Positions 1 to 8,273 of a stretch of DNA of 64,000 bases are shown here, one piece after another. Under the pieces are notes generated by a model. The model ran no database searches, was not told the origin of the DNA, and saw only the letters and a list, made by a program, of their open reading frames with translations. Every line of letters begins with the position of its first letter. Positions within the stretch are counted from its first letter, which is position 1. This DNA is from Bdellovibrionales bacterium. Its GTDB lineage: Bacteria > Bdellovibrionota > Bdellovibrionia > Bdellovibrionales > UBA1609. The DNA lies in the NCBI GenBank assembly GCA_965205945.1, contig CBDBIB010000001.1, forward strand, positions 416,001-480,000, given 5' to 3'. Position numbers and translations under genes: made by a program.

Positions 1-1146
1 ACATTCTGGAAAACAAAATTATTGATTGCTTTTTTATCAGCATTTTTAACTATTTTATTTTTAAATATTTCTATTAAAATACTAAAATTAAAACTAACTT
101 ACAGCGAAATAATCCGTCCTTTAAAAGTATATTTATTACGATATTGTAAATTAGAATTTTGGCCATCTTTTATATTGTATGCTCCTTTTGCTCCATACTT
201 TATATATCTATTTTTAAAATATGGAGGTACTAAAACAATATTATCAACAAACCCCTCAATAAAAATGAGTGGACTTATTGGTGAATTAAAATCTGATATT
301 GATATATTTTTATCAAAATATATTAAAAATCAGCGCATAAAAACATTTAAACTTGATGAAAAAACTCTGCCTTTTGCTAAAAAAATTATGAGTGAAAATA
401 AGTTGTCATTCCCAGTTATTATCAAACCAGATAGCGGAATGCGTGGTGCAGGTGTTAAAATTATAAAAACAGAAAATGAGTTGGAAGAAATTTTAAATAA
501 AACTGAGGAAAAACAAGTTCTACAAGAATTTTGTGATTTTAAAAATGAGTGGGGAATATATTACTACCGTTTTCCAAATGCTCAGAGTGGAAAAATATTC
601 TCAGTAACGGTTAAAGAAAAACCTTTAATAACTGGAGATGGAAAATTATCTTTATATAAATTAGTTTTATCGGATCAACGCCTCTGTCAGAGATTTGATA
701 TTATTTTTAAAGAATGTAACTTATCGCCTCATTATATTCCTAAAGTAAATGAAAAAGTTCAACTTGTTAATAAAGGAAATCACTCTAAAGGCTGTATTTT
801 TTTAGATGGCTCAGAGTGGGTGAAAAACTCTCAACTTAAAAACGTTCAATGGGTCTTAGATCAATTAGAGGGGTTTTATGTTGGTCGGATAGACATTAAA
901 TTTCGTGATTTAGAATCTCTATCTTGCGGAGAATTTAAAATTATAGAAATTAATGGCGCTGGAGCAGAGTCTTCAAATTTTTATGATCCAAAATTTTCCG
1001 TAAAAGAGGCTTATAAAATTATTAAAGAACAATGGACAATTATTTTTCAAGTTGGTCATATGAATCGTAAACTTGGAAAGGAAACAAAAAAATCAATTTG
1101 GAATTTATTTTCTGAAATAATTCAATATCGAAGAATGAAGACATAA
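1..1146 (+). CDS. ATP-grasp fold protein (D-Ala-D-Ala ligase-like superfamily) with an N-terminal hydrophobic segment; 5' end probably outside the window
   Basis: Frame is open from base 1 (TFWKTKLL...). ATP-grasp motifs FPVIIKPDSGMRGAGV, VLQEF, GRIDIKF and IIEINGAGAE. Confidence 0.75.
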   Translation, partial: TFWKTKLLIAFLSAFLTILFLNISIKILKLKLTYSEIIRPLKVYLLRYCKLEFWPSFILYAPFAPYFIYLFLKYGGTKTILSTNPSIKMSGLIGELKSDIDIFLSKYIKNQRIKTFKLDEKTLPFAKKIMSENKLSFPVIIKPDSGMRGAGVKIIKTENELEEILNKTEEKQVLQEFCDFKNEWGIYYYRFPNAQSGKIFSVTVKEKPLITGDGKLSLYKLVLSDQRLCQRFDIIFKECNLSPHYIPKVNEKVQLVNKGNHSKGCIFLDGSEWVKNSQLKNVQWVLDQLEGFYVGRIDIKFRDLESLSCGEFKIIEINGAGAESSNFYDPKFSVKEAYKIIKEQWTIIFQVGHMNRKLGKETKKSIWNLFSEIIQYRRMKT

Positions 1147-1264
1147 AAAGCATTTTATTTTAAACTTGACCTTGGTTTTTTGTATGATTGTATATATTCT
1201 TTAATATATTTTCTTATATACACAGAAAGTAATGGTGGTAATTAATAAAAAAAGGAGATTTAAA

Positions 1265-1717
1265 ATGAAAACACTAATAGTTATATGTATATCTTTTATG
1301 CTAACAACAGCTTTTGCCAAAAATACTAATTATAATATGGATAACGGTTTATTTATAAACGGATATGACCCTGTAGCCTACCTTACAAGCAATAAGGCTA
1401 TAAAGGGAAAACAAAATATACAATATTTGTACAATGGAGTAAAAATTCAGTTTAGCTCAGAAGAGAATAAGAAAAAATTTATAAAAGACCCTGAAAAAAT
1501 GCTCCCAGCTTATAAGGGATGGTGCGCTTACGCTATGTCTGAAAAAGCTAAACTAGTTGAAGTTGACCCTAAGTCCTTTAAAGTTATCAAGGGTAAAACA
1601 TATCTTTTTTATGATAGCGTCTGGGCCGATACTTTAAAAAAGTGGAATAAAAAAAATAACGACAATATACAAGTTAAACGAGCTGATATGAATTGGAAAA
1701 AGATTTATTTAAAATAA
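1265..1717 (+). CDS. Exported YHS-domain protein (Cys form of the YHS (seleno)protein family)
   Basis: GGAG RBS before ATG 1265; signal peptide ending AFA; GYDPVAY, FSSEENKKKF and PAYKGWCAYAM motifs. Confidence 0.8.
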   Translation: MKTLIVICISFMLTTAFAKNTNYNMDNGLFINGYDPVAYLTSNKAIKGKQNIQYLYNGVKIQFSSEENKKKFIKDPEKMLPAYKGWCAYAMSEKAKLVEVDPKSFKVIKGKTYLFYDSVWADTLKKWNKKNNDNIQVKRADMNWKKIYLK

Positions 1718-1727
1718 GGCATTTAAA

Positions 1728-3677
1728 ATGACGCTAACCTGGCATAAAGTTGCTAAAGTTAACGAACTTCTAGAAGGGCGTGTAAAAACAGTAACCATTG
1801 GAACTAAAAATATTGTTCTAACAAAATACAAAGGTATTTATGGCGCCTTAGATAATGCTTGCCCTCATCAGGGTGGACCTTTAGGAGAGGGATCTATTGA
1901 AAATGGTTTTTTACGTTGCCCCTGGCATGGTTGGGATTTTTGTCCTCACTCAGGTAAACCTCCAGGCGGCTACGACGATGGTGTGGCCGTTTACCCTGTA
2001 GAAGAAAGAACTGATGGAATTTATATTCAGATAAAATCTATAAAAGACAATAAAACTACAGTAAGTGATAAAATGGTGGAGACCATGATTAATTGGGGCG
2101 TAGACACTGTTTTTGGAATGGTTGGACATTCTAACTTAGGTTTTGCTGAAGCACTTAGAAAACAAGAAGAGCTTGGGAAGCTACGTTTTTTTGGAATTCG
2201 TCACGAAGGAGCAGCAGCTTTTGCCTGCTCTGGTTATGCTAAAACAATAGGAACCCCTGCAGCTTGCTTTACTATTGCAGGACCTGGAGCAACCAATTTA
2301 TTAACAGGTTTATGGGATGCAAAAGTTGATAGAGCGCCTGTTTTAGCCCTAACAGGGCAGGTGAATACTCAAGTACTTGGACCGGGAGCTTTTCAAGAAA
2401 TTGATTTAACATCTGCATTTAATGCTGTAACTAAATTTAGTCAAACTGTATTAAATGAATCTGATCAAGTCGAGTTAATGAGCTTAGCTCTTAAAAATGC
2501 TATTGTTCATAGAGATGTTGCTCATTTAATTTTACCTGATGAAGTTCAAATATTACCTGCAACAAAGACAATGAAGGCCTTAAGTTGTGTAGGTCGATTA
2601 GCTGATATGAAAATAAGACCACCACTTCAAGCTTTAGATACTGCATTACAAAAAATCTCTAAAAGCAAAAGACCTGTGATTATTGTTGGGTATGGTGCTA
2701 AAAGATCTATGGTTGATATTATTAAATATGCTCAAGTATTAAACGCTCCTATTATAACAACCTTTAAAGGTAAGGGACAAATTTCAGACGCTCACCCTTT
2801 AGCCTGTGGTGTTCTTGGACGTAGTGGAACACCCGTTGCTAGCTGGTTTATGAACGAATCTGATTTATTAATTGTTTTTGGATCGTCATTTTCTAATCAT
2901 ACAGGAATTACCCCTAAAAAACCCATTATTCAAATTGATTTTGATCCAATTCAAATTGGAAAGTTTCATAAAGTAGATATACCCATCTTAGGAGATGTTG
3001 GAGTTGTTGCAAACTTACTGCTTGAAAAAATAAATATTAAAGCAGCAAATATACGAATAAATATTAAAGATGAAGTAGCAAAACGTTGGTCTATTTGGAA
3101 AAAAGAAAAATTATCTCGCACAAAAGATGATTTTAATAAGGGGATTGGATCTGCAGCAATATTTTCTATACTTAAAGATGTTATCCCCAATGATGCTATT
3201 ATTCCTGTAGACGTAGGTAACAATACTTATTCATTTGGACGGTATTTTGAGTGTAAAGGTCAAAGCATTTTAATGTCTGGTTACTTAGGGTCCATTGGAT
3301 TTTCTTTCCCTGCTGCTATGGGCGCTTGGGCTGCAGTTAAAGGACAAAGAAAAATTGTTTCTATTAGCGGCGATGGTGGCTTTGGGCAATATATGAATGA
3401 GTTTACTACTGCTGTTAAATATGACATGGATATCACTCATATTTTATTAAACAATTCAGAGCTCGGAAAAATTTCAAAAGAACAACTTTCCGGAGAATGG
3501 CCAGTTTGGCAAACCTCTTTACACAATCCAAATTTTGCAAAATATGCTCAAAATTGTGGTGGCCTAGGAATTCAAGTTAATAAAATTACAGAACTTAAGA
3601 GTGCTCTAAACAAAGCTATTGCTCATAAAAAAGGACCCTCTCTTGTTGAAATTATCACAGATGCAAAACTCATATAG
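1728..3677 (+). CDS. Rieske [2Fe-2S] domain fused to a pyruvate oxidase/AHAS-like ThDP-dependent enzyme
   Basis: N-terminal CPH...CPWHG Rieske ligands; IRHEGAAAFA and GPGATNLLTGL motifs; ThDP motif GDGGF...NN. Confidence 0.9.
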   Translation: MTLTWHKVAKVNELLEGRVKTVTIGTKNIVLTKYKGIYGALDNACPHQGGPLGEGSIENGFLRCPWHGWDFCPHSGKPPGGYDDGVAVYPVEERTDGIYIQIKSIKDNKTTVSDKMVETMINWGVDTVFGMVGHSNLGFAEALRKQEELGKLRFFGIRHEGAAAFACSGYAKTIGTPAACFTIAGPGATNLLTGLWDAKVDRAPVLALTGQVNTQVLGPGAFQEIDLTSAFNAVTKFSQTVLNESDQVELMSLALKNAIVHRDVAHLILPDEVQILPATKTMKALSCVGRLADMKIRPPLQALDTALQKISKSKRPVIIVGYGAKRSMVDIIKYAQVLNAPIITTFKGKGQISDAHPLACGVLGRSGTPVASWFMNESDLLIVFGSSFSNHTGITPKKPIIQIDFDPIQIGKFHKVDIPILGDVGVVANLLLEKINIKAANIRINIKDEVAKRWSIWKKEKLSRTKDDFNKGIGSAAIFSILKDVIPNDAIIPVDVGNNTYSFGRYFECKGQSILMSGYLGSIGFSFPAAMGAWAAVKGQRKIVSISGDGGFGQYMNEFTTAVKYDMDITHILLNNSELGKISKEQLSGEWPVWQTSLHNPNFAKYAQNCGGLGIQVNKITELKSALNKAIAHKKGPSLVEIITDAKLI

Positions 3678-3685
3678 GAGATTCT

Positions 3686-3892
3686 ATGTCAAAAACTATA
3701 GCCGAAAATATAATTTTATTAGCTAATTTATATATTCTAATAGGTTTTATTTATTCAGTATATTTTTTTAAAATACGCATTCTAAAAACTGATTCAGTTT
3801 TTACTAAAACATGTTGGAGTGTAAAAATTTTAATGGTGCCTGCAACAATAATGCTATGGCCACTTATTGCTATTTGTGGAGAAAAAAAATGA
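3686..3892 (+). CDS. Small membrane protein with two hydrophobic segments
   Basis: AGGAG RBS; 68 aa; starts 8 nt after the upstream stop; ATGA overlap with the next ORF. Confidence 0.7.
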   Translation: MSKTIAENIILLANLYILIGFIYSVYFFKIRILKTDSVFTKTCWSVKILMVPATIMLWPLIAICGEKK

Positions 3893-4035
3893 TTAAAAAA
3901 CAACGAAGAGCTCATTTATATATTTGGCTATTTTTACTTCCAGCATTAATTATTTTATTTTACTTTGTTCAAACTAACCGACAGCTAAATATCAACAAAA
4001 ACTCTAATAACAAAGGACACCACCATGAGCGTTGA
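3889..4035 (+). CDS. Small single-pass membrane protein (MIKKQRRAHLYIW...)
   Basis: ATGA stop/start overlap at 3889-3892; basic N-terminus plus one hydrophobic helix; overlaps the next start. Confidence 0.6.
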   Translation: MIKKQRRAHLYIWLFLLPALIILFYFVQTNRQLNINKNSNNKGHHHER

Positions 4036-5077
4036 TTACGTAAGAGTACAGTGGACAGAGCATAAAAAGTGGTATGATCTAATCTGTGTAGGTTTTTTCT
4101 TTTTGTTATTCTTATGTTTTCTAATTACAAGTTTAATTTCTTTTGATAAACCGAGTCAGTTTAGTTTTATGACCCTTCTTATACGTGGATTTGGGTTATG
4201 TGCTATTACGTTTATACATATTATATTGGCAATTGGTCCTTTAGCACGAATAGATAAAAGGTTTTTACCGTTACTTTATAATAGACGTCATTTAGGTGTG
4301 ATGACATTTTTTATAGCATTTTTTCATGTGTTTTTAGTTATGTTATTTTATCATGGTTTTGGAGTAATGAACCCATTAATGTCTCTTTTAATTGGAAATA
4401 CAGAATACAAGTCTTTATCTGCTTTTCCCTTTGAATTATTTGGGTTAGGTGCTTTTTTTATTTTATTTATGCTAGCTTCTACGAGTCATGATTTCTGGCA
4501 GAAATTTTTTGGTAAAATCTTCTGGAAATCAATGCATATGTCTATTTACTTAGCCTATTTTTTAATAATAACTCATGTTCTCCTTGGAGTTTATCAATCC
4601 GAACAAAGCCTTATTTATACCTTTCTTATAGTTTTAGGGTTTTTAAGTATAAGTGGATTACACATAGCTGCGGGAATAAAAGCTTATAAACTTGATGCTA
4701 TAAATGTGTCAAAATTAAACTGGGTAAAAGTTGCAAAAATTAGTGAGTTTATTCAAGATAGAGCTAAGGTTATTACTACAAAGAATGGAGAGAGTGTTGC
4801 CATATTTAAACATAAAAAAGGTTTTAGTGCTGTAACAAATGTTTGCGCTCATCAAGGTGGCCCTCTTAGTGAAGGTAAAATTATTGATGGTTGTATTACT
4901 TGTCCATGGCATGGATGGCAATATAAGGTTGAGGATGGTCAGAGCCCTCCGCCTTTTGAAGAAAAAATATGTACATATGAAACTAAAATAACTGATGGTT
5001 ATGTCTATGTCTTTGCTCAAGCAAAACCCCCAGGAACCTTTATAACACCCTTAAAAAGTGGAGAATTAAGTGAATAA
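4025..5077 (+). CDS. Ferric-reductase/MsrQ-like multi-pass heme b membrane domain fused to a C-terminal Rieske domain
   Basis: About six hydrophobic helices; LYNRRHLG, FHV, WKSMH and THV histidines; C-terminal CAHQGGP...CPWHG. Confidence 0.85.
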   Translation: MSVDYVRVQWTEHKKWYDLICVGFFFLLFLCFLITSLISFDKPSQFSFMTLLIRGFGLCAITFIHIILAIGPLARIDKRFLPLLYNRRHLGVMTFFIAFFHVFLVMLFYHGFGVMNPLMSLLIGNTEYKSLSAFPFELFGLGAFFILFMLASTSHDFWQKFFGKIFWKSMHMSIYLAYFLIITHVLLGVYQSEQSLIYTFLIVLGFLSISGLHIAAGIKAYKLDAINVSKLNWVKVAKISEFIQDRAKVITTKNGESVAIFKHKKGFSAVTNVCAHQGGPLSEGKIIDGCITCPWHGWQYKVEDGQSPPPFEEKICTYETKITDGYVYVFAQAKPPGTFITPLKSGELSE

Positions 5078-5831
5078 AGATGAATTTTATGTTGGTTATT
5101 TTCCAATGCCGAAAACTTATAAAAAGTTTTTATTTGTTATTTTAACTATAATAGCTATTTTCTTTACTATATTAGTTTTTATTGTTGCTAAAGAGCAAGT
5201 TCAACCTAAAAATGGAGTTGGTTGGAATCCTAACGGGGATGGAGCTATTATTGTTAAAGGTGTAATATCAAAATTCCCCTATGATTTACTACGCTTTAAA
5301 GAGTCAAAAAAAAGTGCTGTTCAAACCGCGATATTAACATCTATGACAAAAACATCTATTCAAAATCGTATAAAAGGAAAATATGATAAAGCCTTAGATT
5401 TAAAAGGAGTTATGATCCGTCAAAATGGCCGATTTGTTTTCTCAGTATTAGACGGTAAAGAAAGCATTAAGATTTCAGATTTTAACCCTTTAGATTTTAG
5501 CCCTTTAAAAACTAAGATGATAGGTATTGTTCATCTACAAGGAGAAATTATTGATCCAAAGTGTTATCTAGGAGCAATGAAGCCAGGAGGGGGCAAGGTT
5601 CATAAATCTTGCGCTGTTCTATGCATCCGTGGTGGAATTCCTCCTATGTTTGTAACCAAGAATGAACTCTTAAATGAAACTTATTATTTACTAACTGATA
5701 AAAATGGTGGTCCAATAGTAGAAGATATTATTGCTTATGTTGGTGATCCAGTTTCAATTACAGGGTTTGCTGAAAAACATGATGATATGTTATTTCTTCG
5801 TTTAGATGTGGAATCAATAAAAAGATTATAA
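5070..5831 (+). CDS. Membrane-anchored hypothetical protein with a Cys/His cluster
   Basis: One N-terminal TM helix; motif GEIIDPKCYLGAMKPGGGKVHKSCAVLCIRGGIPP; GTG start overlaps the upstream stop. Confidence 0.75.
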   Translation: MNKDEFYVGYFPMPKTYKKFLFVILTIIAIFFTILVFIVAKEQVQPKNGVGWNPNGDGAIIVKGVISKFPYDLLRFKESKKSAVQTAILTSMTKTSIQNRIKGKYDKALDLKGVMIRQNGRFVFSVLDGKESIKISDFNPLDFSPLKTKMIGIVHLQGEIIDPKCYLGAMKPGGGKVHKSCAVLCIRGGIPPMFVTKNELLNETYYLLTDKNGGPIVEDIIAYVGDPVSITGFAEKHDDMLFLRLDVESIKRL

Positions 5832-5843
5832 AGGATACCCATT

Positions 5844-7457
5844 GTGAAAAAAATTAAAGTGTTTGAGTTAAATGAATTAGTTGATCGTAGGCCAAATTAT
5901 AAATTAATATCCGGTGTTGATTTAGTTATCATTCGCTATGATGATCAGGTTTCAGTAATGTATGGGCGCTGTTTACATCGTGGTGCGCTAATGTCTGATG
6001 GGCATATTGATGGAAATAACCTTATTTGTGGAGTTCATGGTTGGGACTACCGTTTAGACACAGGCATAAGTGAGTATAATAATAAAGAGGCTCTGAAAAA
6101 ATTTAACTCTTGGATTGACAATGGTGTAGTTTTTCTTGATGCCGATGAGGTAAGCGAGTGGGCAAAAAATCACCCACAGCCATTTAATCGTGAAGAGTAC
6201 CTTGGCTTATATCAAGATGCTCATATAACAGAAGAAGAACCTGAAAATCATTTAATTCAACACCTTGCTAAACACGGTCTAAAAAAATCAGGGCCCCATG
6301 GCCCAACGGGTGCTATGGGGGTTGAAAAATCAAAACTTCCCCATTGGAATGAAATACAAATTACTACAGCTCAATTAAAACGTTTTCCATTATTAGATAA
6401 TGAGCCTGTTAAAAGTAACGTTGTCATTGGCCCTAAAGCTCGTAAACCTTTACACCTTAAAATCCCATTATTTGTTTCAGATATGAGTTTTGGTGCCTTA
6501 TCAGAAGAAGCTAAAATAGCTCTTGCAAAAGGCGCTGAGCTAGCCGGCACTGGGATTTGTAGTGGAGAAGGGGGTATGTTACCAGAAGAGCAGGCTTGTA
6601 ACTCAAGATATTTTTATGAGTTAGCATCCGGACGCTTTGGTTATGACATTAAAAAAGTTAAGCTTTGCCAAGCTTTTCACTTTAAAGGCGGACAAGGCGC
6701 AAAAACTGGAACAGGAGGGCATTTACCAGGAAGTAAAGTTAGTAAAAAAATTGCTTCTGTTCGAGGTTTACAAGAGGGACAAGCCGCAATATCACCAAGT
6801 CGATTTTCTGATTGGGAAAGCCTTGATGATATAAAAAAATTTGCAGATAAAGTGCGTCAGGCTACAGGGGGAATACCTATAGGGTATAAACTCTCGGCTC
6901 AAAGAGTAGAAGAAGATATTGCCGCAGCTCTTTATATTGGAGTTGACTATGTGATTCTTGATGGGCGAGGTGGCGGTACAGGAGCTGCTCCACTAATTTT
7001 TAGAGATCATATTTCTGTTCCAACCATACCAGCTTTAGCTAGAGCCCGACGCTATTTAGATGCTCAAAAAGCGTCTCATGTAAGTTTAATAATTACAGGG
7101 GGACTACGTGTAGCACCAGATTTTGTTAAAGCCCTAGCTCTAGGGGCTGATGCTATTGCACTGTCTAATTCAGCACTCCAAGCAATTGGTTGTTTAGGCA
7201 TGAGGGCTTGCCACACAAACAATTGCCCAGTGGGTATTGCAACTCAAAAAAAAGATTTACGACGCCGTTTAGTTATTGATGAATCTGCAAAACGATTACA
7301 TCGTTTTTTTAGCGCCTCAACAGAATTAATGCAAGTAATGGCTCGTGCTTGTGGACATAATCATTTATCAAAATTTAACTTAGAAGACTTAGTAACGCTT
7401 AACCCCTCTATGTCAAAGCTTAGTGGTGTTCATTTTGCAGGAGATTCAATTTTTTAA
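5844..7457 (+). CDS. Rieske domain fused to an FMN-binding glutamate-synthase-family domain (no amidotransferase domain)
   Basis: CLH...CGVHG Rieske; MSFGALS, GEGG, GQGAK.G.GGHLP and DGRGGGTGAAP; Fe-S motif CLGMRACHTNNC. Confidence 0.9.
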   Translation: MKKIKVFELNELVDRRPNYKLISGVDLVIIRYDDQVSVMYGRCLHRGALMSDGHIDGNNLICGVHGWDYRLDTGISEYNNKEALKKFNSWIDNGVVFLDADEVSEWAKNHPQPFNREEYLGLYQDAHITEEEPENHLIQHLAKHGLKKSGPHGPTGAMGVEKSKLPHWNEIQITTAQLKRFPLLDNEPVKSNVVIGPKARKPLHLKIPLFVSDMSFGALSEEAKIALAKGAELAGTGICSGEGGMLPEEQACNSRYFYELASGRFGYDIKKVKLCQAFHFKGGQGAKTGTGGHLPGSKVSKKIASVRGLQEGQAAISPSRFSDWESLDDIKKFADKVRQATGGIPIGYKLSAQRVEEDIAAALYIGVDYVILDGRGGGTGAAPLIFRDHISVPTIPALARARRYLDAQKASHVSLIITGGLRVAPDFVKALALGADAIALSNSALQAIGCLGMRACHTNNCPVGIATQKKDLRRRLVIDESAKRLHRFFSASTELMQVMARACGHNHLSKFNLEDLVTLNPSMSKLSGVHFAGDSIF

Positions 7458-7667: not shown

Positions 7668-8273
7668 TTAAATCTTAAAGCTCCTCATATCTTTTAGTCT
7701 AGAATTAATATCATTTTCATTTATGGCCCTATCTCCCCCACGCATAGTTTCTGGTTTTGTTAGTGATCCAAACTCAAACTCGTATTTTTCTTTGGGCTCA
7801 ATAATTGATTTAATATATTTAGAAAAATACTGCCTTTTGTTAATAAAGAAACAACTAATTAAATCCCCCTTTTTTAATTCAAATTCGTTATAATCCTCTT
7901 CAACTTCACATATATAATAGGTTTGAAAAATACTAAATTCTTTAATAAGAGGACTTGGAGTTATTCCTTTAATTTTAACTCTGATTTCTTTATTATCAGA
8001 GCCAGAAACACTTAATCCGATGTTGTCACAAGTTTCAAATCTAAATACAAAATGCCAATATTTTTTATATTCTGGTTCAATGCTTCTCATCATGCGTAAA
8101 CCTGCAACATGCATCGATGAATACACTTTAAAAATTAAATTGTTAAAAGTTTCAAGTGTCTTAAACGAATTTTCAACATATTTCTTAAATAATTTTTGAT
8201 CTTTTTGCTGCTGATAAAAACTATAAATTGCGAAACAAAAACTCAAAATTCCGATAATACCAAATATTTCCAT
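7668..8273 (-). CDS. Hypothetical protein with an N-terminal TM helix
   Basis: 201-aa ORF, purine-rich RBS (AAGGAAGAG), no recognisable motif. Confidence 0.6.
   Translation of the reverse strand: MEIFGIIGILSFCFAIYSFYQQQKDQKLFKKYVENSFKTLETFNNLIFKVYSSMHVAGLRMMRSIEPEYKKYWHFVFRFETCDNIGLSVSGSDNKEIRVKIKGITPSPLIKEFSIFQTYYICEVEEDYNEFELKKGDLISCFFINKRQYFSKYIKSIIEPKEKYEFEFGSLTKPETMRGGDRAINENDINSRLKDMRSFKI

Follow-up and report, generated by a model that had tools for sequence, protein, structure and literature searches.

An operon of a Bdellovibrionales bacterium with a genome of 1.87 Mb contains three Rieske-fusion proteins, and its best explanation, to which we assign a probability of roughly one half, is that it encodes two separately conserved redox modules that both use the low-potential-type Rieske [2Fe-2S] domain as their connector, through which the electrons of a 2-oxo acid would reach a flavoenzyme and also cross the membrane. 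This explanation is supported by the domain content of the proteins, their cofactor motifs, their conservation and co-occurrence and, for the membrane module, a model of the complex and a natural fusion. The conserved core consists of five genes (a soluble pair, a membrane pair and a small membrane protein), and not of the eight that an earlier note had proposed for this part of the window (the whole stretch of 64,000 nt that was analysed).

According to the ORF map of the window (Table 1), positions 1265-7457 form a tight operon in which all genes have the same direction, with gaps of at most 12 nt or overlaps. From 1717 onward, the junctions measure +10, +8, -4 (ATGA), -11, -8 and +12 nt, so that the earlier account of their spacing, with overlaps or no more than 12 nt between neighbours, was correct. 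The co-directional layout also stands, but the count of eight genes does not, as two small ORFs between the ThDP and cytochrome genes bring it to nine ORFs. The first ORF is truncated by the edge of the window (the complete protein has 534 aa), and 85-118 nt separate its end from the start of the YHS gene. In the host genus, the membrane module is placed between the genes of the two soluble enzymes, in a single translationally coupled operon.

Table 1. Features of the operon, with the number of foreign loci (80 in total, 43 of them well flanked) where each gene was found
Feature	Position in window	Strand	Description	Loci (of 80)	Well-flanked loci (of 43)
ATP-grasp gene	1..1146 (start 458 nt upstream of the window)	+	3′ two-thirds of gene; N-terminal VTT/DedA-like membrane domain and ATP-grasp ligase domain	1	
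YHS gene	1265..1717 (ORF 1232/1265)	+	"YHS (seleno)protein" family, Cys form; signal-peptide-like N-terminus	0	
Rieske-ThDP	1728..3677	+	N-terminal Rieske [2Fe-2S] (residues 4-101) and PoxB/pyruvate-oxidase-like ThDP enzyme	32	22
F7 N-half ORF	3686..3892	+	68-aa two-helix membrane protein, N-terminal half of F7		
F7 C-part ORF	3889..4035 (ORF 3811/3889)	+	48-aa one-helix membrane peptide, C-terminal part of F7		
FRD-Rieske	4025..5077	+	six-helix ferric-reductase-domain (FRD) cytochrome b and C-terminal cytoplasmic Rieske	26	18
h253	5070..5831	+	N-terminal membrane anchor and two periplasmic OB-like barrels (predicted)	25 (all beside FRD)	18
Rieske-GltS	5844..7457	+	N-terminal Rieske (residues 4-86) and glutamate-synthase-type FMN domain		
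Downstream neighbour	7668..8273	opposite			

The presence of a complete Rieske domain in three different proteins, noticed earlier from the sequence, was confirmed: the ThDP, FRD and GltS fusions score 63.0, 59.9 and 46.6 bits, respectively, against PF00355 (cut-off, 20.3 bits), and CxH...CxxH is visible in all three translations. In fact, the whole genome contains three matches to PF00355, all of them inside this operon. Two of these domains had been described as strikingly alike; this holds for their cluster-binding loops but not for the domains overall (35% identity over 97 aa). In a Rieske tree, the domains cluster by host protein (GltS, 100/100; FRD, 86/53; ThDP together with stand-alone Rieske genes, 87/80) and, therefore, the fusions are old and separate and have been kept, which contradicts their duplication inside the operon. 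In NCBIfam, the three domains match best to NirD, AndAb and HcaC-type ferredoxins, and they resemble NirD and the Rieske-type ferredoxins of ring-hydroxylating dioxygenases. The latter donate electrons to an oxygenase at its own Rieske centre, which provides a precedent for Rieske-to-Rieske transfer. By contrast with these ferredoxins, the domains in the operon are fused to flavoenzymes and a cytochrome, and no oxygenase catalytic domain was found in its Rieske proteins.

Rieske-ThDP has all three ThDP-enzyme domains (Pfam TPP_enzyme_N, M and C at 106, 112 and 116 bits), as do PoxB (pyruvate:ubiquinone oxidoreductase) and Lactobacillus pyruvate oxidase. Among solved structures, the best match is PoxB of E. 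coli (3eya/3ey9, E 3e-65), and the alignment, which covers PoxB residues 2-527, shows both the GDG...NN motif for ThDP and the catalytic-Glu motif HE. A 2-oxo acid is a plausible substrate class by family membership. Against the NCBIfam pyruvate-oxidase model, the enzyme scores 408 bits, below the cut-off of 742. The last ~45 residues of PoxB (527 to 572) are unmatched; as the C-terminal tail of PoxB is a membrane-binding peptide, this anchor has no counterpart in Rieske-ThDP, which has instead the N-terminal Rieske domain that PoxB lacks. Among five genomes checked, an orthologue was not found in three, and in a fourth, the relative G027, it is reduced to a 180-aa remnant.

The second soluble enzyme, Rieske-GltS, shares the Glu_synthase domain (PF01645, 309 bits) with the FMN ("synthase") domain of GltS alpha and ferredoxin-GltS (7mfm, 1ea0, 1llw). 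It aligns to residues 867-1161 of GltS alpha in 7mfm (E 5e-38), conserving the QGAK motif, the VRG arginine after it and the Cys motif of the [3Fe-4S] cluster (C-x5-C-x4-C-P; C450, C456 and C461). However, the glutaminase, central and C-terminal domains of GltS are missing (537 aa against about 1500), and a Rieske domain is placed where electrons would enter. Moreover, the GEGGQLPG stretch of 7mfm, which we take to be substrate-site residues, is GTGGHLPG in this family, so the substrate may differ. Family membership makes imine chemistry plausible, as the earlier note had suggested, but the enzyme could equally well be a dehydrogenase. It is widespread: its pattern has at least 584 matches in species genomes, of which at least 568 were confirmed, and orthologues 66-72% identical occur in Pseudomonadota, Nitrospinota, Acidobacteriota, Gemmatimonadota, Planctomycetota, Poribacteria and others. 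The sole GltS-ThDP "fusion" found (P0271) covers only 402 of the 537 residues of the GltS-like protein in its alignment, and a frameshift artefact seems to be its origin.

FRD-Rieske (Pfam Ferric_reduct, 36.4 bits) contains the only FRD domain in the host genome, and His 89, 101, 155, 171, 184 and 213 are invariant in 22 sequences. With MsrQ (YedZ) of MsrPQ and the bacterial and eukaryotic FRD proteins (NOX, FRE), it has in common the ferric-reductase transmembrane domain, in which helices 3 and 5 carry conserved His pairs, but it has no FAD/NADPH domain and contains a Rieske domain instead. Like MsrQ, it is predicted to have a periplasmic partner of its own, encoded by the adjacent gene, which is an OB-fold Cys/His protein, unlike that of MsrPQ; its score against the MsrQ model is 44.9 bits (cut-off, 130), and no MsrP-type molybdoenzyme was found in the host genome. 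In the available part of Zhang et al. 2013 (PMC3591440), the combination of FRD and Rieske domains has only an entry as model "M4".

The neighbouring h253 matches no Pfam family, and its AlphaFold model (mean pLDDT 86) has only generic OB folds as fold matches (best Z 6.8; Foldseek TM 0.23). Its second barrel contains an invariant motif (C165, M170, H178, C181 and C185). Several observations support well the earlier suggestion that the heme protein has an exported Cys/His partner, and h253 is predicted to be that partner. Wherever h253 was found (25 of 25 loci), the FRD gene lies beside it and, among the 251 alphaproteobacterial genomes considered below, both occur in the same 12. Modelled as a complex, the pair scored 0.83, 0.83 and 0.84 in three runs, compared with 0.00 for the best of three controls; among 157 solved complexes, 116 reach the mark for this score, compared with 2 among 215 mismatched pairs, and these counts hold only roughly here, as the alignments were self-made. 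At least 92% of the contacts are common to the runs, with partner pLDDT of at least 86. In the modelled interface, the anchor helix of h253 would lie against FRD helices 1-2, and its Cys/His loop (residues 170-188) against FRD loops 108-137 and 187-201. Finally, a natural fusion of 603 aa (P0192) carries FRD-Rieske followed by h253, an order compatible with a Rieske domain in the cytoplasm and an OB domain that faces outward.

The two small ORFs probably correspond to F7, a conserved protein of ~120 aa whose gene elsewhere stands just ahead of that for FRD. An F7 profile built from 11 proteins matches the 68-aa ORF at positions 3-58 of 122 (E 3e-9) and, weakly, the 48-aa ORF at positions 75-106 (E 0.007). 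The ATG of the latter overlaps the preceding TGA, directly after an A8 run; this junction is identical in the same-genus genome G003, where the 68-aa ORF is 79% identical. F7 thus appears to be split in two in the host genus, where it accompanies the core modules.

The co-occurrence of the three fusions across phyla, proposed as a check on the original idea, was indeed observed. Rieske-ThDP orthologues (57-65% identity) adjoin Rieske-GltS in 32 of 80 foreign loci. Of the 43 loci flanked by 6 kb or more in both directions, 14, from many phyla, contain all three fusions, and 17 have Rieske-GltS with neither partner nearby. In a sample of 251 alphaproteobacterial genomes, whose kinship makes the counts overstate independence, Rieske-ThDP is present in 14, Rieske-GltS in 13 and FRD-Rieske in 12; both soluble enzymes are present in 10, and all three fusions in 7, against ~0.6 expected by chance. 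By contrast, a single self-contained unit is not what these data describe: neither soluble enzyme is present in five of the 12 FRD/h253 genomes, the soluble pair occurs without FRD/h253 in three, and Rieske-ThDP and Rieske-GltS are the only fusion in four and three genomes, respectively. As the modules are separable, each Rieske enzyme must also work with other partners.

In the two-module explanation, the PoxB-like ThDP/FAD enzyme would be the electron source, oxidatively decarboxylating a 2-oxo acid and releasing the electrons one at a time to the Rieske domain fused to it. From there, we infer that docking between Rieske domains would allow the electrons to flow to two sinks. One would be the cytoplasmic GltS-like flavoenzyme, wired from Rieske to [3Fe-4S] to FMN and acting on an imino or oxo acid. 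The other would be the FRD/h253 conduit to the periplasm, where electrons would pass from the cytoplasmic Rieske domain to two b hemes of the ferric-reductase-type six-helix bundle and then to the Cys/His/Met site of the anchored OB-fold h253, seated on the outer loops of the cytochrome; F7 would accompany this pair.

It has to be considered, as an unlikely alternative, that the soluble enzymes are sequential dehydrogenases, the FMN enzyme converting an amino acid to a 2-oxo acid and the ThDP enzyme converting this to a carboxylic acid and CO2, with the FRD cytochrome as sole sink, in what would be an amino-acid-fed branch of respiration or electron export. The first product would belong to the substrate class of the second enzyme, which would explain the frequent adjacency of the two genes, and the membrane module sits between them in the host operon. 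The relatives of the host include Pseudobdellovibrionaceae, and predatory bacteria of this kind live on amino acids; GltS is able to oxidise glutamate with artificial acceptors, and FRD-family proteins carry electrons outward in the accounts available. However, FRD/h253 is missing from 3 of the 10 genomes that encode the soluble pair, where the electrons would need a different acceptor, and the host genome already has a conventional glutamate-dehydrogenase-family gene.

We consider it more doubtful still that each Rieske domain serves its own enzyme, as an internal relay to a general, cell-wide partner or a redox, O2 or NO sensor, and that clustering reflects co-regulation, for instance in a stress operon. 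Although every fusion occurs alone in some genomes and the gene surroundings differ greatly between loci (25 of the 80 have a cation/proton antiporter and 17 an unknown 283-aa protein, and ABC and acyl-CoA ligase genes also occur), the host genome has no other Rieske or FRD protein that could be the general partner, the genes are as closely packed, with overlaps or direct contact, as those for subunits of one complex, and the triple co-occurrence far exceeds chance.

The earlier note placed all eight genes in one pathway, with the ATP-grasp enzyme making or activating the substrate and the YHS protein as exported electron partner. In its favour, the genes are co-directional and conserved in G003, ATP-grasp gene included, and the YHS family is exported, with a Cys/Sec site; the YHS protein scores 112.2 bits against NCBIfam NF041384 (cut-off, 70) and 26.5 against Pfam YHS, under the cut-off of 30.3, and the ATG at 1265 is the more likely start, since the G003 alignment begins only at residue 12. 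Additionally, an Acidobacteriota MAG (L042) has, downstream of FRD-h253 and in the same orientation, a homologue of the whole VTT and ATP-grasp protein (28% identity, residues 8-534, E 4e-66). Nevertheless, this is the only such homologue in the 80 foreign loci, where the YHS gene was never found; both genes are absent from the G027 cluster, and the gap before the YHS gene sets the ATP-grasp gene apart from the tight operon. Moreover, the L042 protein forms a fusion with a hydrolase, and a GNAT acyltransferase gene stands before it, a context that suggests a ligase for lipids or peptides with a separate function. Both genes are genus-level neighbours outside the conserved core, the roles proposed for them rest on the host genus, and the eight-gene pathway is very improbable. 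A reverse flow, in which FRD/h253 would bring electrons from a periplasmic donor inward and drive the GltS-like reductase, is hardly credible: heme and Rieske chains are reversible in principle and Rieske-GltS is the most conserved and widespread member, but characterised FRD-family proteins (NOX, FRE, MsrQ) move electrons outward, as far as the available accounts go, and the PoxB-like enzyme, an irreversible cytoplasmic source, is encoded in the same operon.

Returning to the two-module explanation, the neighbours of distant homologues suggest what electrons might do at the periplasmic end. Stand-alone homologues of the second domain of h253 (E 5e-14 to 5e-9 against the h253 profile, positions 146-245), which share the motif GEI.D..C....M...G..H..CA..C..GG.P, are followed in 13 of 13 cases by a secreted Cys-rich protein of ~172 aa and, in 10 of the 13 loci, the copper chaperone SCO1/SenC comes next, two genes on. 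These secreted homologues are soluble, single-domain and uncharacterised and are not beside an FRD gene, whereas h253 is anchored and has two barrels. These neighbours make copper, or thiols in proteins that handle copper, possible targets of the electrons delivered to h253. We found no study of the Rieske-ThDP/FRD-Rieske/Rieske-GltS system in the literature, nor, as had been anticipated, a characterised pathway of the same composition; the three Rieske-fusion proteins recur together in many bacterial phyla.

At the left edge of the window, eight tightly packed ORFs on the forward strand (1265-7457) follow a ninth gene, of which the window includes the 3′ part. Past position 1717, the junctions between consecutive ORFs are +10, +8, −4, −11, −8 and +12 nt, and the operon is considered to end at 7457, as the downstream gene (7668-8273) is found on the opposite strand. 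ORF calls and Pfam (PF00355) confirm the packed, co-directional operon with three Rieske fusions described in the earlier note, with three corrections. Regarding its layout of eight genes, the packing was right, but the first gene is truncated by the window edge and two small ORFs are present. The complete product of this first gene has 534 aa, with a VTT/DedA-like membrane domain before the ATP-grasp domain. The second gene scores 112.2 bits (cut-off 70) with the profile for YHS domain-containing (seleno)proteins, over positions 3-113 of 113. Promoter-like sites were fewer than in shuffled DNA (25 vs. 37.5 on average) and a convincing terminator was not found, the scan being uninformative in DNA as AT-rich as this. 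Of the forms observed in this analysis, the operon, with all its parts within 6.2 kb, is the most compact, and it is fully interleaved.

Genes of the Rieske operon, in window coordinates
Feature	Position	Strand	Basis
ATP-grasp protein (3′ part)	1-1146	+	Pfam/NCBIfam
Exported YHS "(seleno)protein" family member	1265-1717	+	NF041384, 112.2 bits
Rieske domain fused to three-domain ThDP enzyme (Rieske-ThDP)	1728-3677	+	Pfam/NCBIfam
Two small membrane ORFs	3686-3892, 3889-4035	+	
Ferric-reductase transmembrane domain with C-terminal Rieske domain (FRD-Rieske)	4025-5077	+	Pfam
h253, 253 aa, without family	5070-5831	+	Pfam/NCBIfam
Rieske domain fused to glutamate synthase FMN domain (Rieske-GltS)	5844-7457	+	Pfam

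The three Rieske domains score 63.0, 59.9 and 46.6 bits with PF00355 (cut-off 20.3), and all of them carry the CxH...CxxH ligand motifs (CPH...CPWH, CAH...CPWH and CLH...CGVH). The disulfide cysteines that accompany the ligands in bc1-type proteins are absent from the three, in keeping with Rieske domains of the ferredoxin type. A search of the whole genome (1.87 Mb, 97% complete) detected exactly three Rieske domains, all inside the operon, as is the single ferric-reductase domain of this organism. No bc1/b6f-type Rieske subunit was detected in that search and, as the Rieske domains are confined to the operon, a classical complex III is presumably missing from the respiratory chain.

The Rieske domains of the ThDP and FRD proteins had been considered strikingly alike, but they share only 35% identity over 97 aa. 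A tree was built with the three domains from 15 genomes having all of them, together with three stand-alone Rieske genes that adjoin Rieske-less ThDP genes. It groups the domains by host protein (GltS 100/100, FRD 86/53, ThDP plus stand-alones 87/80) rather than by operon, so the fusions must be old. Consequently, a recent duplication inside the operon, for which a phylogeny had been suggested as a check, is ruled out both by this grouping and by the low identity between the ThDP and FRD domains. In three foreign loci (L017:12485-12838, L040 and L089), a separate 117-aa gene encodes the Rieske domain that goes with the ThDP enzyme, whose own gene lies immediately downstream and is Rieske-less. 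Since these stand-alone genes nest within the ThDP-Rieske clade, fission or fusion has occurred more than once.

Regarding the enzymes to which these domains are attached, all three ThDP-enzyme domains (PF02776, PF00205 and PF02775) exceed their cut-offs in Rieske-ThDP. The closest solved relative of its ThDP part is E. coli PoxB (E 3e-65), to which the ThDP-binding motif GDGGF...NNS also aligns. The C-terminal peptide of PoxB binds the membrane and delivers electrons to quinone. The alignment, however, stops at PoxB residue 527 of 572 (query residue 644 of 649), so there is no counterpart of this membrane-binding tail; instead, the protein has an iron-sulfur domain. Additionally, its scores are below the cut-offs of the equivalogs for pyruvate oxidase (NF006377, 407.9 bits vs. 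742) and ubiquinone-dependent pyruvate dehydrogenase (NF006591, 294.7 bits vs. 792). Judged by its sequence, Rieske-ThDP is PoxB-like, not a PoxB.

The 537-aa Rieske-GltS consists, according to Pfam, of a Rieske and a Glu_synthase domain (PF01645, 309 bits), plus weak FMN_dh/IMPDH overlaps, and it aligns to residues 867-1161 of the solved large chain of GltS (7mfm). As in GltS, there is a [3Fe-4S] motif (C450-x5-C456-x4-C461-P, aligned to 7mfm and invariant in 16 sequences), and QGAK and the arginine after it are retained. By contrast, GTGGHLPG replaces the GEGGQLPG of GltS, and the glutamine amidotransferase, central and C-terminal beta-helix domains are missing. The score with the large-subunit equivalog (NF008730) is 152.8 bits, against a cut-off of 1047, and databases label the homologues merely as "glutamate synthase-related protein". 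A single long protein, P0271, was found that could have been a GltS-ThDP Rosetta-stone fusion; it covers 402 of the 537 GltS residues, is probably a frameshift product and was discarded. The search for longer proteins that revealed it is itself weak evidence.

The membrane protein of the operon, FRD-Rieske, scores 36.4 bits with PF01794 (cut-off 28). No variation is seen among 22 sequences in its histidine pairs H89/H101 and H171/H184, as expected for the two b hemes that are predicted to be bound. Positive charges are found at the N-terminus, in loops 2-3 and 4-5 and in the stretch after the last of six predicted helices; with the topology read from this distribution, the Rieske domain would be cytoplasmic. 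Unlike NADPH oxidases and FRE proteins, FRD-Rieske has no FAD/NAD(P)H dehydrogenase domain in Pfam, and its C-terminus is the Rieske domain. Membership of an MsrPQ system is ruled out by the score with the MsrQ equivalog (NF003831, 44.9 bits vs. a cut-off of 130) and by the lack of any match to an MsrP-type molybdoenzyme (PF00174) in the 97%-complete genome, in a search whose control matched in nine of 14 known genomes.

The gene that follows encodes h253, whose family includes 2658 representative clusters at E ≤1e-3 and 1281 at ≤1e-30. In the AlphaFold model (mean pLDDT 86), a helix at the N-terminus (residues 15-42) precedes two OB-like barrels, the second with an insert containing the invariant residues C165, M170, H178, C181 and C185. 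Structure searches with Foldseek (best, a tandem-OB SSB, E 5e-5, TM 0.23) and VIA-align (best, Z 6.8, rmsd 2.7, 66 aligned residues) returned generic OB folds only. Among the many generic OB folds, SilF, of the CusF/SilF copper chaperones, matches at Z 5.5/5.2, on the first barrel and not on the Cys/His domain. For h253, a protein atlas suggested an unnamed "DUF5666" cluster (0.96), with recognition under the atlas's own mark.

Complex modelling supports the binding of h253 to the cytochrome. The three runs scored 0.83, 0.83 and 0.84, against 0.00 for the highest-scoring of three controls; in the benchmark of this score, 116 of 157 solved complexes attained the mark, as did two of 215 mismatched pairs, counts that hold only roughly here, as our own alignments were fed to the model. 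The runs share at least 92% of the contacts, with a partner pLDDT of at least 86. In the modelled complex, the anchor helix of h253 lies against FRD helices 1-2 and its N-terminal tail against the inner loop 78-85, while the Cys/His insert (170-188) contacts FRD loops 108-137 and 187-201, which would be outer loops in the topology read. Additionally, there is a natural 603-aa head-to-tail fusion, P0192, of an FRD-Rieske part (41% identity to the window protein over 349 residues) followed by h253; its topology agrees with a Rieske domain in the cytoplasm and an OB domain facing outward. Another such fusion, P0194, has an internal gap. This support for the pairing, from both model and fusion, is an addition made by the window.

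Gene context also provides a lead to the chemistry of the h253 insert. The h253 profile matches secreted proteins of ~140-180 aa that have the second domain only, together with its motif. In 13 of 13 alphaproteobacterial loci (L102-L114; e.g., L104:3791-5326), such a protein, with the motif GEI.D..C....M...G..HH.CA.WC..GG.P, is followed by a secreted Cys-rich protein of ~172 aa without Pfam family and, in ten of the 13, SCO1/SenC comes next. SCO1/SenC is a family of copper chaperones. These three genes form a conserved periplasmic unit, apparently undescribed, which ties the Cys/His/Met domain, by gene context, to periplasmic copper or thiol chemistry. The YHS protein (putatively metal-binding, exported and containing Cys) fits this theme, although it is a neighbour in this genus only. 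The SCO1 link is likewise an addition from this window.

So is the split of a small membrane protein, F7, which is encoded ahead of the FRD gene as a single ORF of ~120 aa in other genomes. The split is located at 3880-3895 (GGAGAAAAAAAATGATT). With an F7 profile, the 68-aa ORF matches the first half (E 3e-9), and the next small ORF shows a weak match (E 0.007) to the last part; the start of this second ORF is most likely the ATG at 3889, which overlaps the TGA at 3890-3892, after a run of eight A. The junction is the same in a second species of the genus (L094, about 5952-5967). By reading of the frames, one added A in the run would merge them into ~116 aa, the length of a long F7; thus, slippage bridging the split is a possibility, as an alternative to a fixed fission.

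Among 41 related genomes, full-length Rieske-GltS is found in three: that of the window, that of a relative of the same genus, with 91% identity and the entire nine-ORF arrangement, and that of a member of another family (G027), with 70% identity and the order small ORF-FRD-h253-GltS. In the last one, a 180-aa frame distant from the cluster (G027:C1:477740-478267) corresponds to residues 474-649 of Rieske-ThDP with 78% identity and looks like a relic of gene loss. The two large fusion genes have a G+C content of 0.36-0.40, against 0.28-0.31 in the flanks, which, with the patchy distribution, would fit acquisition by transfer, although strong protein constraint could contribute.

Outside the lineage, at least 8000 scored candidates all match Rieske-GltS, the best 120 being two-domain proteins with 67-100% identity, and at least 568 of the 584 pattern matches listed in species genomes were confirmed. 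The best 80 loci of those listed (65-72% identity) are from Pseudomonadota, Nitrospinota, Acidobacteriota, Gemmatimonadota, Planctomycetota, Poribacteria and Microthrixaceae, among others. Cultured carriers in the species genomes include Roseibium denhamense, Hoeflea poritis and a Ruegeria sp. Their neighbourhoods, with Rieske-ThDP orthologues defined by at least 75% coverage and 45% identity, are summarised in the following table.

Genes found beside Rieske-GltS in the best 80 loci and in the 43 of them with at least 6 kb on each side
Gene or combination	Best 80 loci	Well-flanked loci
Rieske-ThDP	32	22/43
FRD-Rieske	26	18/43
h253, always adjoining FRD	25	18/43
FRD and h253 together	25	18/43
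All three fusions		14/43
Neither ThDP nor FRD	41	17/43
YHS	0	
ATP-grasp	1	

The three fusions thus do co-occur elsewhere (in 14 of the 43 well-flanked loci), as the earlier note had asked. The same distribution (one and zero of the best 80 loci) rules out the ATP-grasp and YHS genes as core members, which the note had included in the pathway. In 25 of the best 80 loci, from several phyla, the gene immediately before Rieske-GltS, on its strand, encodes a CPA1-type cation/proton antiporter; other neighbours are a 283-aa protein (17) and F7 (11). Neither the antiporter nor the 283-aa protein is among the window genes, and a 14-sequence profile of the latter, used without a positive control, matched nothing in this genome. 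A second, distant case of an ATP-grasp ligase adjoining the membrane module is found in an Acidobacteriota MAG (L042:3362-8737), where FRD-Rieske, h253, a GNAT acyltransferase (PF13444) and a 923-aa fusion lie on one strand. This fusion (alpha/beta hydrolase, VTT and ATP-grasp domains) is homologous to the full length of the 534-aa protein (28% identity, E 4e-66).

In 251 evenly drawn alphaproteobacterial genomes, h253 is present in 12 and FRD-Rieske in the identical 12, Rieske-GltS in 13, Rieske-ThDP in 14 and both soluble enzymes in ten. All three fusions are found in seven, vs. about 0.6 expected by chance, a comparison that overstates independence because the sampled genomes are related. 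Five genomes have FRD/h253 without either soluble enzyme, and beside the pair neither another Rieske gene nor a family common to the five was found; three have the soluble pair without FRD/h253. The overall picture is of two modules, each conserved on its own, that tend to come together and that, in the window, are interleaved into one operon.

The analysis shows the motifs for the cofactors, how the proteins are conserved and co-occur, and the pairing of FRD with h253; beyond this, we propose a wiring. The PoxB-like enzyme would be the electron source, as oxidative decarboxylation is irreversible and the outlet of PoxB has been lost while a Rieske domain has been gained. Rieske ferredoxins exchange electrons with Rieske oxygenases and, by analogy, the Rieske domains of the operon may pass electrons between proteins. 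The GltS-like enzyme, with its Rieske, [3Fe-4S] and FMN centres, would be a cytoplasmic sink, and FRD/h253 a second one, as a conduit to the periplasm. We give this wiring as a whole a probability of about 0.5. That it is obligate is opposed by the occurrence of each fusion alone in some genomes. The main rival, in which both soluble enzymes would be dehydrogenases acting in series to feed the cytochrome, is considered improbable.

Beyond this wiring, it is conceivable, though rather unlikely, that FRD-Rieske/h253 represents a new class of transmembrane reductases that draw directly on central metabolites instead of NAD(P)H or quinol. The Rieske domain of the cytochrome would be the socket for a Rieske-tagged 2-oxo-acid dehydrogenase and perhaps also for the GltS-like enzyme, and the periplasmic Cys/His/Met centre would reduce copper or keep Sco-type copper chaperones and exported Cys/Sec proteins (e.g., the YHS protein of the operon) reduced. 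Rieske domains would then be portable docking plugs of an unrecognised, phylum-spanning electron network.

The earlier note knew of no characterised pathway of this composition, and the literature searches are in line with this, yielding only a catalogue of FRD architectures and unrelated papers. In that catalogue, FRD+Rieske appears as a domain model only (Zhang et al. 2013, PMC3591440). No study of the Rieske-ThDP, FRD-Rieske or Rieske-GltS fusions was found in the literature covered, that of freely available journals.

Of the proteins without an assigned function, Rieske-GltS is among the better conserved: its identity is 66-72% over at least eight phyla, and no fewer than 568 species genomes encode it. 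Its usual companions, a tail-less Rieske PoxB-like enzyme and an MsrQ-like cytochrome whose periplasmic partner is of a new kind, are equally unstudied. The operon offers a clean template for reconstitution, as all its parts fit into 6.2 kb and further Rieske or FRD proteins are lacking in the genome. If the proposed wiring is true, bacteria would have a route by which electrons from 2-oxo acids reach a flavin reductase and cross the membrane with neither NAD(P)H nor quinones involved; this would bear on the means by which the chemistry of copper and thiols in the periplasm is maintained in the reduced state.
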